Shown here piece after piece: positions 800 to 24,599 of a stretch of DNA of 64,000 nucleotides. The DNA is from Rickettsiales bacterium. GTDB lineage: Bacteria; Pseudomonadota; Alphaproteobacteria; Rickettsiales; UBA3002. The position numbers and the translations under genes were made by a program. Every line of letters starts with the position of its first letter. The first letter of the stretch is position 1. Below the pieces are notes generated by a model. It was given only the letters and a program-made list of their open reading frames with translations. It searched no databases and was not told the origin of the DNA. The stretch lies in NCBI GenBank assembly GCA_037968615.1, contig JBBKVX010000017.1, forward strand, positions 9,266 through 73,265, given 5' to 3'.

Positions 800-1575
800 A
801 ACGCGTTAGGGAATAACAGGCTGCACGCAATAGTGGTGTTGCTCAGGGCATAATCGGCGGCGTAATCGGTCGGGCCAGAGGTGCCAGCGCAGAGTGAATG
901 TTTGAAGACAATCATTTTGCCGCGACCGGGTTTCCCGTCATCGATTTTTTTATCAATGTTCCATGCTTCTTCCGGTTTGAGGTTCGGCACAACGGGCATG
1001 TTGCCGCTAGAGGCGGCACCCAATGTAAGCGTATTGCCATATTCGTAAGTGTACCAATTGGTGGCATCTCCCAACGCATCGGGGTGATATCCACTCCACC
1101 CGGAGCCCGGTAATTTTGAAGCGGGCACATTGGCGCCAATATCGGCGGAGTAGGGGACGGCATTGCCCGCCTTGCGCCCACCATGGTAACTGCCTTCGAT
1201 GAGGCCCGCGTTCGCCATCTGCTTCCAGAAATGCCACGCTTCTGAGAAACTCACATAGCTATCCATGGTCCAGACCAACCCATCACCGTTGCCGTCGCAG
1301 GTGGCGATGGTAGTGCTGGAGGTGCCCCGGCAGGTGGCGGGAGTAGGGTCGATCGCACCCCAGAATTTGGTCGCGTTGGGCATGTCGCCGGGCAGCCCAA
1401 AATACTGATCCTTGAACGCATTGATGGCGGTCAGGTAGCGGCTATGCTCCGTCGTAACGGCGCGCAGCTCGGACGCGCGAATAAGCGATTGCCCCGCAAG
1501 TATGCCGCCGACCAGCAGACCTAGGATGACGAGGACGATGGAGAGTTCTACTAAACTAAAACCGCTTCTCTTCAT
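796..1575 (-). CDS. Prepilin-type N-terminal cleavage/methylation domain protein (type IV pilin/pseudopilin-like)
   Basis: Real start is MKRSG/FSLVELSIVLVILGLLVGG (class III signal peptide, Glu5) inside ORF 796..2166; ATGA overlap with the metF stop; several Cys. Confidence 0.85.
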   Translation of the reverse strand: MKRSGFSLVELSIVLVILGLLVGGILAGQSLIRASELRAVTTEHSRYLTAINAFKDQYFGLPGDMPNATKFWGAIDPTPATCRGTSSTTIATCDGNGDGLVWTMDSYVSFSEAWHFWKQMANAGLIEGSYHGGRKAGNAVPYSADIGANVPASKLPGSGWSGYHPDALGDATNWYTYEYGNTLTLGAASSGNMPVVPNLKPEEAWNIDKKIDDGKPGRGKMIVFKHSLCAGTSGPTDYAADYALSNTTIACSLLFPNAF

Positions 1576-2480
1576 AAAGCAGAATCCACACGAACGCCTA
1601 AAATATGGCAAATGGCTTGGGTGAGTTCGGCGCGGTTGAGGGTGTAGAAATGGAAGTGGTTGATGCCGCTGAGCATCAGCAGGCGGCATTGTTCGGCGGC
1701 GACCATGGCGGCCACCAAATTGCGCAGTTCGGGTTTTTCGTCGAGGCCTTCGAACAGTTTGGAGAGCCATGCGGGCACGCTGGCCCCGGCCATGGCGGCG
1801 AATTTTTTCAGCTGCGCAACGTTGGTGACGGGCAGGATGCCGGGCACTATCTCGGCGGTGATGCCGGCGGCGCGGGCGCGGTCGTGGAAACGCAGATAGA
1901 GATCGACGTCGAAGAAGAACTGGCTGATGGCGCGGGTGGAGCCGGCGTCGAGCTTGCGTTTTAGATGGTCGAGATCGGCCTGCGGCGAGAGAGCCTGCGG
2001 ATGCGATTCGGGGTAGGCGGCAACGGAAATATCGAAATCGCCAATTTCCTTTAAGCCCTTCACCAGGTCGTCGGCGTAGGCGTAGCCGCCTTGGGTGGGG
2101 GCGAAGCTGCTGCCGTCGGGCGCGTCGCCGCGCAGGGCCACGATGTGGCGGACGCCCGCATCCCAATATTGTTGGGCGATGGTTTGGATTTCGCCGCGGG
2201 TGGCGTTGACGCAGGTGAGATGCGCGGCGGGGGTGAGGTCGGTCTCACGTTTGATGCGGGTGACGGTGGCGTGGGTGCGCTCGCGCGTGGTGCCGCCCGC
2301 GCCGTAGGTGACGGAGACGAAGCGTGGTTTGAGCGGCGCGAGGGTGGCGATGACGTCCCACAGCCGGGCCTCGGCCTCGACGGATTTGGGCGGGAAGAAC
2401 TCGAACGACACGGCCGGGGGTGGCGCGCCATAGAGTTCGCGGAGGTTCTGGAGCAGTTCGATGCGTTCGTTCATGTGCAT
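1572..2480 (-). CDS. metF: Methylenetetrahydrofolate reductase
   Basis: VSFEFFPPK, FVSVTYGAGG, AHLTC, ALRGD, SQFFFD and HFYTLN motifs; start probably 2480 or 2474. Confidence 0.95.
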   Translation of the reverse strand: MHMNERIELLQNLRELYGAPPPAVSFEFFPPKSVEAEARLWDVIATLAPLKPRFVSVTYGAGGTTRERTHATVTRIKRETDLTPAAHLTCVNATRGEIQTIAQQYWDAGVRHIVALRGDAPDGSSFAPTQGGYAYADDLVKGLKEIGDFDISVAAYPESHPQALSPQADLDHLKRKLDAGSTRAISQFFFDVDLYLRFHDRARAAGITAEIVPGILPVTNVAQLKKFAAMAGASVPAWLSKLFEGLDEKPELRNLVAAMVAAEQCRLLMLSGINHFHFYTLNRAELTQAICHILGVRVDSAL

Positions 2481-7086: not shown

Positions 7087-7619
7087 CGCTTGCGGAAGGC
7101 CTCGAGCGAGATGACCTTCTCGTCGTTGGCGGCTTTGGTTTCTTCGGAGGGAGCATCTTCCTCGAAGGCGGCCATCGGCGGTTTTTCGTTGGCCGTACGG
7201 CCGGTGGCGGGGCAAGCGACGGGCTCTTCGTTCTCGGAAGTGGTGACCGGGCGTTTGCCATGGAATTGCAGGCCGAATTTGATGCTGGGGTCGGCGAACG
7301 CGGTGAGCGCGTCCAGCGGCACGACGAGTTTCTCGGGCACGTTATTGAAGCTGAGCATCAGCGAGAAATGGTCGCGGGCGATTTTCAGATCCCAGAATTG
7401 GTGCTGCACCACTATGGTGATTTCCTCCGGGTAACGCGCTTTCAGCTGCGGGGAGATGGAAACGCCGGGATATTCCGTTTGGAACGAAATGAAGAAATGA
7501 TGCTCGCCCGGCAGACCGAATTTCTGCACATGGATCAGCGATTCGCGCACGACATTGCGCATCGCGGAATCGATCATTTTCGGATAATCTAGGGTTTCGT
7601 CTTGCATGATGCCCATCAT
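7083..7619 (-). CDS. sspB: ClpXP adaptor SspB (alphaproteobacterial type)
   Basis: GLPGEHHFFISF, YPEEITIVVQHQFWDL, FADPSIKFGLQF and C-terminal VISLEAFRKR ClpX-binding tail; lies downstream of ssrA. Confidence 0.93.
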   Translation of the reverse strand: MMGIMQDETLDYPKMIDSAMRNVVRESLIHVQKFGLPGEHHFFISFQTEYPGVSISPQLKARYPEEITIVVQHQFWDLKIARDHFSLMLSFNNVPEKLVVPLDALTAFADPSIKFGLQFHGKRPVTTSENEEPVACPATGRTANEKPPMAAFEEDAPSEETKAANDEKVISLEAFRKR

Positions 7620-18945: not shown

Positions 18946-19935
18946 ATGAGTGAGATTACCCGCATCCACCCGAGCGACCCATTGGTGCTACCGGCCCTTA
19001 AGGCCGCGCGCGCCCAATTCGACGCCGATTTTACCTCGGCCCTTGCGGCAAGCGATGCGGCGTTCGCAGCCGACCCGCATGCCAAGGAGCGCGGCTACGC
19101 GCTGGGTCCCAAGCAGGAAGAGATTCCCCCGCGCGAGGAATTCGAGGATGTGTATTATTATGCTTGCGACGTGCTGGATGCCCTGCAGGATACATTGCAC
19201 ATGATGCGCGATTCGGAAGACCAGCAGATGCTGGTGCTGAACGCGCTGTGCGGCGTGTATCGTGAAACCTTGCTGGGCGAAACCAACGAAGAGCATTTCG
19301 GCGTGATGGCCGATTTTTATAAAATCTGGCAAAAGGAATATGCCGCGTTGCAGGCGGACGACACGAAGATCGATCGCCAGTTTACCGCCGAATATGGAAT
19401 GGGCGATCTGTTCAGCCTTACCGACATCTATATGGAGGTGGCGGACAAGAACGACTCCGCGTTGGCTTCGCTGTTATTGGCACGGCAGGAGAAAGCAGGC
19501 GTCGCCCCCACGCATCGCATTACACATTTCCAATCCTACGCGATGGAGGAATTTGCTGCGCAGCGTGGGATAAGCTACGAGCAGTGCGAACCCGAAGATT
19601 TCTATACGTTCAAATGCCAATTGCTGGACGAGTTGCTGGCCCCGTTCAAAGCGAGCCTGCCGGGGGAAAGCTGCCCCGAAATGGCCTATCTGGTGGCCAC
19701 AGCAGGCACGCGTGCATTGCGCGGCGTCGTAAGGCCTAAACAGGCGCTCGCTGCCGATAACGACAACCAGCCAATGTTCGGCCCTGAGCTGAACCAGCCT
19801 AAAATGATCCATGATGTATGCGCCGCGCTGAAACCGCTCACCCGCCAGCATACCGACCTCGCCCACGACCCGCTGCAACTGCTGGAAGTGATGATCAACC
19901 AGATGGCGCCGGGCAAAGAAAAGGGGCGCTTATGA
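18946..19935 (+). CDS. Hypothetical acidic helical protein (paralog 1)
   Basis: 329-aa ORF between miaA and ilvB; C-terminal third resembles the next ORF. Confidence 0.75.
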   Translation: MSEITRIHPSDPLVLPALKAARAQFDADFTSALAASDAAFAADPHAKERGYALGPKQEEIPPREEFEDVYYYACDVLDALQDTLHMMRDSEDQQMLVLNALCGVYRETLLGETNEEHFGVMADFYKIWQKEYAALQADDTKIDRQFTAEYGMGDLFSLTDIYMEVADKNDSALASLLLARQEKAGVAPTHRITHFQSYAMEEFAAQRGISYEQCEPEDFYTFKCQLLDELLAPFKASLPGESCPEMAYLVATAGTRALRGVVRPKQALAADNDNQPMFGPELNQPKMIHDVCAALKPLTRQHTDLAHDPLQLLEVMINQMAPGKEKGRL

Positions 19936-20936
19936 GTGGGCAGGTTACGGAGAATTACCTGAACGTGGACCCGGCATTCGTGGCTGCGCTGGACAGCACG
20001 TTGCGTACGGTAGAATTGCATCTCGATGAGGTGCAGCATTTTATGCGCACGACAAAAAGCGAGCATCCGGAAATCCAACGCGGCACCATGCTGAATTTGG
20101 TGAAAGAGAACCGCCGTACGCGCTATCTTGACGACATGGACATCGAGGAGCGACGGGCGATGCTGCGGATCGCGCGCGACAAAATATGCGATTCGATGCA
20201 GAAAGCCACCACTCCGAAAGAACGCGCGCTGGCATTGATCGAGATCGTGCAGGGCGGCCTGCATGGCAGCGTGTTCCTGGGCAATGATTTTGAGATGTGG
20301 CGCATTGTCGATCATTGGCTGGAAGATGCGCGCGCCGAGTTTTTGCGCACGGCGCCGCCAACGGCGATGCGCGCTTACAAACCCGCGCTGGAAGCCTGCA
20401 GCCGCTATGCTGAAATGACCGAAATGGCGCATGGCGCTTTGCGTGAAATGATCCATGCCGAGCAGCGCAAGCAAGGTGCGGCGCCGCATGAGTTGCGGGA
20501 TACGTGCTACGATTGGGCGGAAGAGCATTTTTATCGGCATTACCCCAGTCGGCGCGACCACGAGCTAACGATGCAGGAAAAATACTGGATCACGGAAAAA
20601 TCGAAGGGCTTGCTGGAAGGATTATTTGAACCCTACAGCGAAGGCCTGAGCGGATATATTGCGCCCGAAATGGCGGCATTCATCGTGCTGACGGCCGACC
20701 GGCATGCACAAAAGCTGGAGCCAGAAGCCCGCGCGCAGGCACGCGCCGAAGCCCTTCCCGCCGCCAACGATAACACGATGGTGCTGGCCCATGAAGTGCT
20801 CCGCCGCACGAACGGCACGCTCTCGACTTTGCTGGAAAAACACCCAGATGCTGCGCTGAGTGCGGAAGGACTGCTGGAGGCATGGAATGCACTTGATCGC
20901 CAGATGGCTCCGGCCAAAGCCGAGCGGCACCGTTGA
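19932..20936 (+). CDS. Hypothetical helical protein (paralog 2)
   Basis: ATGA-coupled to the previous gene (start MSGQVTEN); shares PEMA, ANDN and QMAPxK motifs. Confidence 0.75.
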   Translation: MSGQVTENYLNVDPAFVAALDSTLRTVELHLDEVQHFMRTTKSEHPEIQRGTMLNLVKENRRTRYLDDMDIEERRAMLRIARDKICDSMQKATTPKERALALIEIVQGGLHGSVFLGNDFEMWRIVDHWLEDARAEFLRTAPPTAMRAYKPALEACSRYAEMTEMAHGALREMIHAEQRKQGAAPHELRDTCYDWAEEHFYRHYPSRRDHELTMQEKYWITEKSKGLLEGLFEPYSEGLSGYIAPEMAAFIVLTADRHAQKLEPEARAQARAEALPAANDNTMVLAHEVLRRTNGTLSTLLEKHPDAALSAEGLLEAWNALDRQMAPAKAERHR

Positions 20937-20937
20937 A

Positions 20938-20982
20938 CTAAACGATTTTAGGCTTGCAAAGTTCGTTTAGATAACCTAAATA
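20938..20982 (+). promoter_or_regulatory. ilvB promoter with palindromic operator
   Basis: -35 TTGCAA (20954), 17-bp spacer, -10 TAAATA (20977); TTTAG-N5-CTAAA palindrome at 20966-20980; CTAAA-N4-TTTAG at 20938-20951. Confidence 0.6.
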
Positions 20983-20991
20983 CCCCGCCTT

Positions 20992-22974
20992 ATGGACACG
21001 AAAGAACGCATCATTGCCAAGTTCGGCGGCACCAACCATGTGGCCGATATCTGTGGCGTTACACCGGGCGCGGTGTCGCAATGGGAACTGGTTCCCGCCC
21101 GCCACCAAATGACGCTGCTGGCGGAAGCCAAGCGACTGAACATTCCGCTGAAGGCGGATGAGTTTCACGGCGCCAAGGCCAGCCCCGCCGCGCGCGACAG
21201 CCGCAAAACAGATGCCCCCGCGACCAAAGCCGGACGCGAGATGAGCGGTGCGGAAATCATCATTCAGTCGATGCTCGATAATGGCACCGACGTGGTGTTT
21301 GGCTATCCCGGCGGCGCGGTGTTGCCGGTGTACGATGCGTTGTTCAAACAAAACAAACTGCGCCATATTCTGGTGCGCCACGAACAGGGCGCAGGCCATG
21401 CGGCGGAGGGATACGCCCGCTCCACCGGCAAGGTGGGCGTAGTGATGGTGACTTCGGGTCCCGGCGCCACCAACATGGTGACGGCGCTGGCCGACGCGCT
21501 GATGGATTCGATTCCGCTAGTATGCATTACCGGCCAGGTGCCGACGCATCTGATCGGTTCCGATGCGTTCCAAGAGGCCGATATTGTCGGCATCACGCGT
21601 TCGGCCACCAAGCACAACTACCTCGTGAAGGACGTGAACGATCTCGGCCGCATTTTGCACGAAGCCTACCACGTGGCCGTGACCGGCCGCCCCGGCCCCG
21701 TGCTGGTGGATGTGCCCAAGGACGTGCTGAACAGCATTGGCCAATATTATGGCAAACCCTCGACGCATCGCCAGAGCTACAAGCCGGTGAAAAAGCCCGA
21801 TATGCGCATGGTGGAGCGCGCGGTGGATTTGATGGCGCGCGCGAAAAAGCCGCTGTTTTTCGTGGGTGGCGGTGTGGTGAATGCCGGGCCGAAAGCCTGC
21901 GAAAGCTTAGGCAAACTGGTGCGTATGACGGGCTATCCCGTCACCACCACGCTGATGGGCCTTGGCGCCTATCCCGGCCGCGACCCGCTGTTCCTCGGCA
22001 TGCCGGGCATGCATGGCTCGCTGGAAGCCAACATGTGCATGAGCGAATGCGACGTGATGATCAATCTTGGCGCGCGGTTCGACGACCGGGTGACGGGGCG
22101 GTTGGACGCGTTCTCGGTGGGGTCGAAAAAGATCCATGTCGATATCGACGCCAGCTCCATCAACAAGATCGTGCCGGTGGAAATTCCCATTGTTGGCGAT
22201 GCGGGCGAGGTCATCGATATGATGATCGCGCTGTGGAAGAAAAAGAAATACGCCGCGCAAAAAGAAGCGCTGGCGAAATGGTGGAAACAGGTGGATGGCT
22301 GGCGCGCGCGCGACAGTTTCGGCTATAAGCAAGTGGGCCGCCACATTAAGCCGCAGCACGCGCTGCGTCAGCTTAACAAGGCGCTTGAGAAAAAAGATTT
22401 CTACATCACCACCGATGTTGGCCAGCACCAGATGTGGGCCGCGCAACATATCCTCTACGACAAGCCGAACCGCTGGATGACCTCGGGCGGACTGGGCACA
22501 ATGGGCTACGGTTTCCCCGCCGCCATCGGCGTGCAGATCGCGCATATGAAAGCGCCAGTCGTGTGCGTCACGGGCGAGTCGTCGTTCATGATGTGCATTC
22601 AGGAACTGAGCACAGCGGTGCAGTACCGTTTGCCGGTGAAGATCATGATCCTCAACAACCAGTATATGGGCATGGTGCGCCAGTGGCAGGAGATGTTCTA
22701 CAGCTCGCGCTATTCGGAGAGCTACATGGACAGCCTGCCCGATTTCGTGAAATGCGCCGAGGCCTTCGGCATGAAAGGCATCCGTTGCAAAGACCCGGCC
22801 AAGCTCGACGATGCTATCCGGGAAATGATGGCCCATCCCGGCCCGGTGCTGTTCGATTGCTGGGTGGACCCGAACGAGAACGTGTATCCGATGATCCCCG
22901 CCGGCGCGGCGCATCATGAATTGGTGCTGGGGCCCGAAGAAGCGGCACCGGTGCTGGATAAGAACAGGGTTTGA
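20992..22974 (+). CDS. ilvB: Acetolactate synthase large subunit with N-terminal Cro-like HTH extension
   Basis: FGYPGG, RHEQGAGH, TSGPGATN, DVGQHQMW and ThDP-site GESSFMM...LNNQYMGMVRQWQ motifs; about 80 extra N-terminal residues. Confidence 0.95.
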   Translation: MDTKERIIAKFGGTNHVADICGVTPGAVSQWELVPARHQMTLLAEAKRLNIPLKADEFHGAKASPAARDSRKTDAPATKAGREMSGAEIIIQSMLDNGTDVVFGYPGGAVLPVYDALFKQNKLRHILVRHEQGAGHAAEGYARSTGKVGVVMVTSGPGATNMVTALADALMDSIPLVCITGQVPTHLIGSDAFQEADIVGITRSATKHNYLVKDVNDLGRILHEAYHVAVTGRPGPVLVDVPKDVLNSIGQYYGKPSTHRQSYKPVKKPDMRMVERAVDLMARAKKPLFFVGGGVVNAGPKACESLGKLVRMTGYPVTTTLMGLGAYPGRDPLFLGMPGMHGSLEANMCMSECDVMINLGARFDDRVTGRLDAFSVGSKKIHVDIDASSINKIVPVEIPIVGDAGEVIDMMIALWKKKKYAAQKEALAKWWKQVDGWRARDSFGYKQVGRHIKPQHALRQLNKALEKKDFYITTDVGQHQMWAAQHILYDKPNRWMTSGGLGTMGYGFPAAIGVQIAHMKAPVVCVTGESSFMMCIQELSTAVQYRLPVKIMILNNQYMGMVRQWQEMFYSSRYSESYMDSLPDFVKCAEAFGMKGIRCKDPAKLDDAIREMMAHPGPVLFDCWVDPNENVYPMIPAGAAHHELVLGPEEAAPVLDKNRV

Positions 22975-22975
22975 T

Positions 22976-23524
22976 ATGAGCACAGAAACACTCGATATCG
23001 TCTACGACATCCCCGACGAAAAACCGCTGGAGGATCGCCATATCCTGAGCGTGCTGGTGGATGACGAGTTCGGTGTGCTGAACCGCGTGGTGGGGCTGTT
23101 CTCGGCGCGCGGTTACAACATCGAATCGCTGACCGTGGCCGAGGTCGATCTTAAGCGCAGCTATTCGCGCATCACCGTGGTGACGCGTGGCTCGGCCAGC
23201 AAAATCAAACATATCATCGCGCTGCTTGAGCGCATGGTGCCCGTGCACAAGGTGAACGACCTGACGGTGGAAGGCCCGTTCGTCGAACGCGAGCTGGCGT
23301 TGGTGAAGGTGGTGGGCAAAGGCGACGACCGTGTGGAAGCGCTGCGCATCTCCGGTATTTTCCGTGCCAAGCCGGTCGATACCACGGGCGAGAGCTTCGT
23401 GTTCGAAATCACCGGCACGAGCGAAAAGGTCGATAGCTTCATTAACCTAATGAAACCCATTGGTTTAGTGGAAGTCTGCCGCACCGGCGTTGCTTCGGTG
23501 GCGCGGGGCAAAAAAGGGATTTAA
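22976..23524 (+). CDS. ilvH: Acetolactate synthase small (regulatory) subunit
   Basis: ACT domain GLFSARGYNIESLTV; RELALVKV. Confidence 0.94.
   Translation: MSTETLDIVYDIPDEKPLEDRHILSVLVDDEFGVLNRVVGLFSARGYNIESLTVAEVDLKRSYSRITVVTRGSASKIKHIIALLERMVPVHKVNDLTVEGPFVERELALVKVVGKGDDRVEALRISGIFRAKPVDTTGESFVFEITGTSEKVDSFINLMKPIGLVEVCRTGVASVARGKKGI

Positions 23525-23552: not shown

Positions 23553-24599
<1,047 letters not shown>

Follow-up and report, generated by a model that had tools for sequence, protein, structure and literature searches.

Acetolactate synthase fused to a phage Cro-family domain, with a predicted phage-type operator over its own promoter, in a Rickettsiales bacterium

Why does the large subunit of acetolactate synthase (acetohydroxyacid synthase, AHAS) in a Rickettsiales bacterium begin with a domain of the helix-turn-helix (HTH) type, and would that domain act on the promoter of its own gene? 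The question is raised by the ilvB gene in a stretch of 64,000 nucleotides, here called the window (GenBank assembly GCA_037968615.1, contig JBBKVX010000017.1, positions 9,266 to 73,265 of the forward strand). A previous interpretation made from the letters and translated reading frames (the sequence-only reading) had proposed that a phage-type repressor domain and its operator were domesticated so that the enzyme autoregulates branched-chain amino-acid synthesis. The positions it gave for the open reading frame (ORF), the promoter hexamers, both inverted pairs and the internal ATG at 21241 all proved correct against the sequence. Here, we find that the fusion is real and conserved, that its N-terminal domain is a phage Cro domain, and that this domain occurs together with a conserved palindrome. 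We consider it probable that the locus represents a captured phage P_R-O_R-cro module, through which the fused AHAS negatively autoregulates ilvB-ilvH-ilvC.

The ORF at 20992-22974 on the forward strand encodes 660 aa without interruption and comprises three parts, a Cro-type HTH domain, a disordered linker and an AHAS large subunit (Table 1). The N-terminus of the protein is MDTKERIIAKFGGTNHVADICGVTPGAVSQWELVPARHQMTLLAEAKRLNIPLKADEF. The HTH signature seen there by the sequence-only reading had been described as Cro/YdaS-type, and profile searches decided in favor of Cro. With Pfam P22_Cro (PF14549, gathering cut-off 30.2 bits), residues 1-83 by themselves scored 40.2 bits and the whole protein 36.2 bits, whereas YdaS_toxin reached 18.6 bits on the same N-terminus, far under its cut-off of 30. 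PHROGs grouped this region with phage transcriptional regulators and repressors. A profile of window residues 1-63 aligned with 53 standalone and 8 fused relatives (alignment A1) was compared with the sequences of solved structures and matched P22 Cro (E = 2.5e-10), the Xfaso 1/Pfl 6 hybrid XPH1 (4.1e-9), Xfaso 1 Cro (6.4e-8) and N15 Cro (9.9e-7). The AlphaFold2 model of residues 1-63 contains five helices, with a mean predicted local distance difference test (pLDDT) value of 91.8. Foldseek ranks 1-9 against the PDB were all Cro proteins (Xfaso 1, N15 with and without DNA, P22 and XPH1), with template modeling (TM) scores of 0.57-0.69 and probabilities of 0.98-1.00; their E-values, only 0.02-0.13, are as modest as expected with a 63-residue query. 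The N-terminal domain of this AHAS thus belongs to the phage Cro family, all-alpha class.

The recognition helix of the domain lies within VTPGAVSQW, and its A-V-S-Q-W is unchanged in all 40 full-length fused proteins. Residues F11, G12, G13, V17, A18, C21, V23, T24, A27, V28, S29, Q30, W31, P35, H38 and Q39 are among the positions invariant in these proteins, covering the turn and the recognition helix. In a genome-level search, the fused domain (39.8 bits) was the only PF14549 match, which rules out a separate Cro-type regulator elsewhere in the genome.

Pfam domains in the fused protein are P22_Cro at residues 3-40, TPP_N at 84-200, TPP_M at 274-409 and TPP_C at 475-623. The ORF, the Pfam matches and the structure model agree in joining the Cro domain and an enzyme core in a single polypeptide. 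A model of the whole protein was used solely for the statement on the linker, since parts of the AHAS core are also of low confidence in it; there, the Cro domain keeps its fold at a pLDDT of about 80-89, the value drops under 50 for residues 61-78, and the AHAS core starts from residue 82. The flexible linker postulated earlier is therefore supported, and its length and sequence vary among relatives, with HTH and linker together spanning 79-94 residues in 18 fused relatives. In this genome, rated 100% complete, no other gene passes the family cut-off for the AHAS large subunit, ruling out a second AHAS that would relieve the fused gene of enzymatic duty. Its intact domains, its single copy and the adjacent ilvH and pathway genes suggest that it serves as the AHAS of the cell.

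We then asked how widely the fusion occurs. In a large protein collection (search limited to residues 1-100), 42 protein clusters combine PF14549 with AHAS domains; nearly all are 656-685 aa long, and where the sources name them, they are plainly called acetolactate synthase large subunit. Of the genomes of 40 relatives searched with the N-terminal 83 aa, 23 belong to the same genus, and 17 of these gave a match; the other 17, from other genera, gave none. Every one of the 17 matches is in frame with a long ORF, open for 657-715 aa where the contig permits. In a wider sample of the order (401 genomes, 190 genera), the domain occurs in 19 genomes and every time as a fusion; at E up to 1e-5, standalone copies did not turn up. 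Eighteen of these genomes belong to the genus of the window, the genome of the window (G000) included, and one (G366) to a second genus of the same family. With the same open frame recurring across two genera (19 genomes) and across 42 clusters from several sources, an assembly or gene-call artefact is ruled out. One further genome of the genus (G001, 97% complete) gave no AHAS large-subunit match with a 577-aa core query, the gene being either unassembled or lacking.

Median pairwise nonsynonymous divergence (dN) over the HTH region is 0.199 and synonymous divergence (dS) is 1.25, a dN/dS of about 0.16; the first 200 codons of the AHAS core gave 0.097 and 1.07, respectively. The low dN relative to dS indicates that the domain is translated and under purifying selection. 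The sequence-only reading had named translation from 21241, the ATG of MSGAEII in frame with the 20992 start, as the outcome that would undo the fusion. Of 18 fused genes, 3 have ATG at the matching codon, 5 have TTG and 10 have CTN, a pattern that cannot be reconciled with internal initiation at this site as a general rule.

The promoter region offers a candidate target for the domain. TTGCAA and the putative -10 hexamer TAAATA are separated by 17 nt, and 9 nt (20983-20991) follow before the ATG, in agreement with the nearly leaderless arrangement described before; the proximal and distal operator-like sites are about 28 bp apart, centre to centre. When the upstream regions of the 18 same-genus fused loci were aligned on the palindrome, TTTAG-N5-CTAAA was present in 18/18, as was TTG exactly 12 nt upstream of it. 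CTAAAC lies about 10 nt further upstream in 17/18, the exception (L008) having TTTTAG at the position of the second distal half-site of the window. Farther upstream, the sequence is unrelated between species. The palindrome begins 23-27 nt before the ATG in 13 of the 18 loci and 38-56 nt before it in L008, L012, L016, L017 and L018; among these five, a Shine-Dalgarno-like GGAG/GAGG occurs, or (L012, L016) an in-frame ATG four codons upstream at the short distance. The locus of the second genus contains CTAAAC-TTAT-TTTAG, TTGAGT and TTTAG-TTAAT-CTAAAC, then a leader with GGTGAGG, which brings the totals over both genera to 19/19 fused loci for the palindrome and 18/19 for the distal CTAAAC.

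Nine unfused AHAS loci, five from the same genus (G002, G008, G011, G019 and G021) and four from other genera, contained no TTTAG-N3-7-CTAAA, CTAAAC or GTTTAG within 600 nt upstream. Domain and operator are thus present or absent together in all loci compared, and conservation of the palindrome at a fixed position in every fused locus, with its absence from every unfused one, goes beyond chance. This survey bears out the earlier proposal of an operator that overlaps the promoter and is conserved along with the domain, and the co-occurrence is the basis on which we infer regulation of the enzyme's own promoter. No Rfam family matched 20000-21400 at E up to 1, ruling out a known RNA leader or riboswitch.

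Where do the domain and the palindrome come from? An exhaustive search of representative proteins yielded 66 hits at E up to 1e-3. In the best three of them, P0043-P0045 (217, 140 and 106 aa), which are truncated fusions, the sequence continues into AHAS; no AHAS sequence is visible in P0046 (75 aa). The remaining 62 comprise 53 proteins of 51-103 aa and 9 longer ones; the nearest free-standing relatives (P0047-P0053) are 68-82 aa long and 44-57% identical. The AHAS start of P0045, MLGAEMIVKALLGEDV, is unlike that of the genus and hints at a further fusion-bearing lineage. A homologue with 46% identity occurs in Novacetimonas maltaceti (L038), and the same region is found in Komagataeibacter phage phiKM1, where the 81-aa Cro-like ORF faces the XRE-family repressor gene PhiKM1_130. 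The 85-bp intergenic region of phiKM1 contains CTAAAC-gcgc-TTGCAT-ataaaa-CTAAAC-atg-GTTTAG, with three CTAAAC/GTTTAG hexamers. This ORF is unannotated in the phage record (L050/LC644974.1 at about 7111-7356; L038 at 2474-2719).

A scan of viral contigs added 80 loci with 69 distinct upstream regions of 150 nt each. These regions contain 53 CTAAAC/GTTTAG hexamers, versus 3.9 expected from the rest of the same loci, and 59 YTTAG-N4-6-CTAAR palindromes, versus 1.08 expected, the latter in 36/69 regions; sites of this palindrome type appear to be the cognate operators of this Cro subfamily in phages. The strict TTTAG-N5-CTAAA occurs in exactly the three closest viral homologues (L051-L053, 53-57% identity), 23-24 nt before the ATG, with TTGCAT ahead of it and TAAATT or TAAAAT overlapping it. 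The operator of L051, TTTAGATAACCTAAAT, is identical over 16 nt to window 20966-20981. L051 also shows a textbook divergent pair, its Cro-like gene (1495-1722, forward strand, 75 aa) standing opposite a CI-type repressor gene (846-1403, reverse strand, 185 aa); no CI-type gene adjoins the fusion in the window.

The promoter-operator layout shared with L051-L053 suggests that the ilvB promoter region is homologous to a phage P_R/O_R region, and the near-leaderless ilvB start would likewise be inherited, given a distance of 6-8 nt from -10 element to ATG in the phage genes. The fused domain and the phage Cro homologues also have a recognition helix in common. At the level of sequence homology, these comparisons with phage immunity regions show the phage origin of the domain and the predicted operator, which the sequence-only reading had surmised. 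The HTH tree has too few columns and neither supports nor contradicts a single origin of the fused domains.

Several observations weigh against a captured module with an autoregulatory role. To begin with, the fusion is absent from 5/22 same-genus genomes having an AHAS match, and the module is to that extent dispensable. The sequence-only reading had held that absence from close relatives, or an assembly artefact, would speak against it; the absence is real in part, but the artefact is excluded, and the five unfused loci also lack the operator, as expected of a coupled module. Moreover, fused and unfused genes interleave in the AHAS-core tree (24 rows; L002, L009 and L011 were dropped as too short), where well-supported branches force at least 4 changes and the gene of the window is sister to an unfused gene (support 98/96). 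The history is thus not a simple single gain, and a single gain with simple vertical descent is not supported. Unfused genes share the start M-T/S-E-x-R/Q-E/Q-L-T-G-A-E, while fused genes join the linker to R-E-L-T-G-A-E. Four independent deletions are unlikely, as they would hardly recreate an identical start, and we favor two alleles of the 5' region swapped between species by recombination.

Other such points concern the operator and the promoter. TTTAG-N5-CTAAA occurs once in the 1.88-Mb genome, at ilvB, versus 0.49 expected (CTAAA-N4-TTTAG occurs twice), so that the palindrome is not significant by itself in one genome. A wider regulon was ruled out: across 41 genomes, counts of the strict 10-base palindrome range from 0 to 5 per genome in the genus, against 0-9 for its reversed control, which is background level, leaving no wider regulon to corroborate a regulator. 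The locus looks like a single-target system. The CTAAAC/GTTTAG hexamer is about three-fold under-represented in the genome of the window (170 versus about 570 expected from base composition). A simple sigma-70 scan lists no promoter at ilvB, a miss attributable to TAAATA being without a final T; the promoter is predicted from a TTG that never varies, from its constant spacing and from the homologous phage promoters TTGCAT-17-TAAATT. The right half-site also serves as the -10 element and could be conserved in part for the sake of the promoter, and the A/T-rich distal element could be an UP element rather than an operator.

Based on these findings, we propose a probable mechanism by which the fused enzyme would control its own synthesis. 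One half of a phage immunity region, consisting of a P_R-type promoter, O_R operators and cro, would have been captured in front of ilvB and fused to it in frame, with the Cro domain held on AHAS by a flexible tether some 20 residues long. Since catalytic subunits of AHAS are obligate dimers, at least two Cro domains would be displayed per enzyme. Some all-alpha Cro proteins dimerize only weakly alone, and fusion to dimeric AHAS would supply the dimerization needed for a palindrome. The Cro domains would then bind TTTAG-N5-CTAAA and the CTAAAC site just upstream of the -35 element; since the proximal palindrome extends over promoter spacer and -10, the bound protein would block RNA polymerase. 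As the enzyme accumulates, the near-leaderless cro-ilvB-ilvH-ilvC message would be repressed, which amounts to negative autoregulation. The 61-nt gap and the shared strand suggest that ilvC is probably in the same transcription unit as the fused gene. DNA binding by the fused domain, repression and the transcription start are predictions from sequence. Of the sequence-only reading, then, the fusion, the operator-like palindrome over the promoter and the phage origin have stood; DNA binding and autoregulation are retained as predictions, and a response of binding to valine, IlvH or oligomeric state as speculation.

A refinement compatible with this autorepression is that Cro-AHAS is a true trigger enzyme, which would bind the operator only, or better, in a given state (a valine-bound, IlvH-associated higher oligomer, or a form loaded with thiamine diphosphate, flavin adenine dinucleotide or pyruvate) and so pass end-product or substrate status directly to transcription. 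We regard it as possible but doubtful. The spacing of the two operator sites would suit a protein whose valency shifts with its oligomeric state, and ilvH, encoding the ACT-domain regulatory subunit, has its start codon 2 nt past the stop of the fused gene, with one base separating them. The characterized fusions BirA, NadR, PutA and RbkR are effector-modulated (PMC5397151). However, the long disordered tether offers no obvious allosteric route except a change in valency, and plain concentration-dependent autorepression accounts for all the data. A bolder version, which we put forward as speculation and consider unlikely, sees a portable phage-switch cassette, exchanged as an allele at ilvB, that reads the quaternary state of AHAS: valine/IlvH-dependent oligomers would gain tethered Cro domains, and only the feedback-inhibited holoenzyme would bridge both operators, turning end-product inhibition into repression without a separate regulator.

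Alternatively, the module might be a relic, kept for its promoter and start codon, with the Cro domain as a tolerated appendage that has no regulatory role. The five same-genus species that dispense with the module would fit such a relic, as would a right half-site that is conserved anyway as part of the -10 element and the lack of a visible wider regulon. We nevertheless hold this to be improbable, because purifying selection has preserved the HTH while synonymous divergence reached saturation, the recognition-helix residues do not vary among the 40 proteins, and the left half-site TTTAG, which lies in a normally free spacer, is kept in all 19 fused loci, along with the distal CTAAAC in all but one.

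We give still less credence to two products from one gene, in which internal initiation near codon 84 would yield an ordinary AHAS and the full-length protein would be a minor regulatory isoform. The window has its ATG at 21241, and 8/18 genes have TTG or ATG there; the other 10 have CTN, no Shine-Dalgarno motif is conserved in the variable linker, and in unfused relatives the start, M-T/S-E-x-R-E, lies 5-6 codons earlier and is missing from the fused genes. Least probable of all is a function directed at phages, in which an abundant constitutive Cro domain would bind the O_R of related temperate phages to give immunity or a lysis-lysogeny bias, with ilvB autoregulation as a by-product: although operators of environmental viral contigs match that of ilvB (16 nt identical in L051) and the phage homologues share its recognition helix, there would be no reason to tie such a role to AHAS or to retain the ilvB operator, the genome yielded neither a prophage nor another Cro/CI gene of this family, and the domain occurs only in fused form (19/401 order genomes, all fused).

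Table 1. Features of the cro-ilvB promoter, the fused gene and the genes downstream, in window coordinates
Feature	Coordinates	Strand	Basis
Distal operator-like site CTAAAC-GA-TTTTAG, directly upstream of -35	20938..20951	+	Conserved CTAAAC
-35 element TTGCAA	20954..20959	+	Invariant TTG; aligns with TTGCAT of phage homologues L051-L053
Proximal operator (predicted) TTTAG-ATAAC-CTAAA, over promoter spacer and -10	20966..20980	+	Conservation, phage match
Putative -10 hexamer TAAATA	20977..20982	+	Phage homologues have TAAATT or TAAAAT there
Cro-type helix-turn-helix domain, residues 1-60, five helices	20992..21171	+	Pfam PF14549, PDB profile, AlphaFold2, Foldseek, dN/dS
Disordered linker, residues about 61-81, A/R/K/E/P-rich	21172..21234	+	pLDDT <50 at residues 61-78
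Biosynthetic AHAS large subunit (TPP_N, TPP_M, TPP_C), stop codon included	21235..22974	+	TIGR00118 (NCBIfam, biosynthetic-type acetolactate synthase large subunit), 771.7 bits versus cut-off 538.35
ilvH/ilvN, acetolactate synthase small (regulatory) subunit	22976..23524	+	NF008864, 203 bits versus 119
ilvC, ketol-acid reductoisomerase	23586..24599	+	NF004017, 551 bits versus 336

In the surroundings of the fused gene, leuA lies close to ilvB-ilvH-ilvC. About 19 residues precede the family-profile match in the ilvH product (20-181 of 182 aa). On the upstream side, two overlapping forward-strand ORFs, 18946-19935 (329 aa) and 19929-20936 (335 aa), match no Pfam, PHROG or NCBIfam family. As an insertion, they separate miaA from the Cro-ilvB promoter; the unfused AHAS locus of G021 (L024) shows a weak relative of the second ORF (20% identity, E = 1.6e-5). 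miaA lies directly upstream in five fused loci and one unfused locus; because it abuts the promoter in other fused loci, the two ORFs are ruled out as part of the module. The second ORF ends 1 nt short of the distal CTAAAC, and this end may mark the edge of the functional promoter block.

If the fused Cro domain does act as a repressor at its own promoter, branched-chain amino-acid synthesis would contribute its first committed enzyme to the few enzymes that double as their own transcription factors. It would also follow that such proteins can arise by wholesale capture of a phage promoter, operator and repressor, and not by gradual gain of a DNA-binding domain. The natural fused and unfused alleles in sister species provide a ready comparison for the value of anabolic-enzyme autoregulation in a small-genome bacterium without a leader-peptide attenuator. 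In addition, the 60-residue domain with its 45-bp promoter-operator would be a compact autoregulatory part, testable in heterologous hosts. No published AHAS-HTH fusion was found in the full-text literature, a search that left subscription journals mostly outside and in which supplementary domain-architecture tables could hold a mention; the Cro-AHAS architecture is already visible in precomputed Pfam annotations, though under the name of an ordinary AHAS.

Among known systems, the fused domain is closest to the lambdoid all-alpha Cro proteins (P22, 1rzs; N15, 2hin/6on0; Xfaso 1, 3bd1; PF14549), with which it shares the family and the five-helix fold. A palindromic operator of about 17 bp, predicted here, likewise overlaps the promoter of its own gene, and its closest standalone relatives, on viral contigs and in phage phiKM1, face CI-type repressors. 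However, lambdoid Cro is a free protein of 60-80 aa, whereas the domain here is the N-terminus of a 660-aa metabolic enzyme; the fusion has neither a partner CI repressor nor a prophage, and its promoter drives a biosynthetic operon.

The classical control of ilv genes relies on leader-peptide attenuation (ilvBN, ilvGMEDA), Lrp and IlvY. In Corynebacterium, a conserved upstream open reading frame is reported to act in ilv control (PMC10272879). The target is the same, namely expression of the AHAS operon, but the 9 nt from -10 to ATG leave no room for a leader here, and regulation would come from the N-terminus of the enzyme itself.

Trigger enzymes with a built-in DNA-binding domain include PutA, BirA, NadR and archaeal RbkR (PMC5397151). 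Cro-AHAS resembles these proteins in combining a DNA-binding domain and a metabolic enzyme in one polypeptide, and in having a conserved palindrome in the promoter of its own pathway genes, suggestive of autoregulation. Effector control is the defining property of trigger enzymes, and the likeness of Cro-AHAS to the class lies in its architecture and predicted operator. It differs from PutA, BirA, NadR and RbkR in that the enzyme is AHAS, that the DNA-binding domain is a phage Cro that appears to have arrived with its own promoter and operator, and that some species of a single genus have the module while others lack it. The enzyme-repressor fusion is thus known as a type; what would be new is the enzyme involved and the capture of a whole phage promoter-operator-cro cassette.

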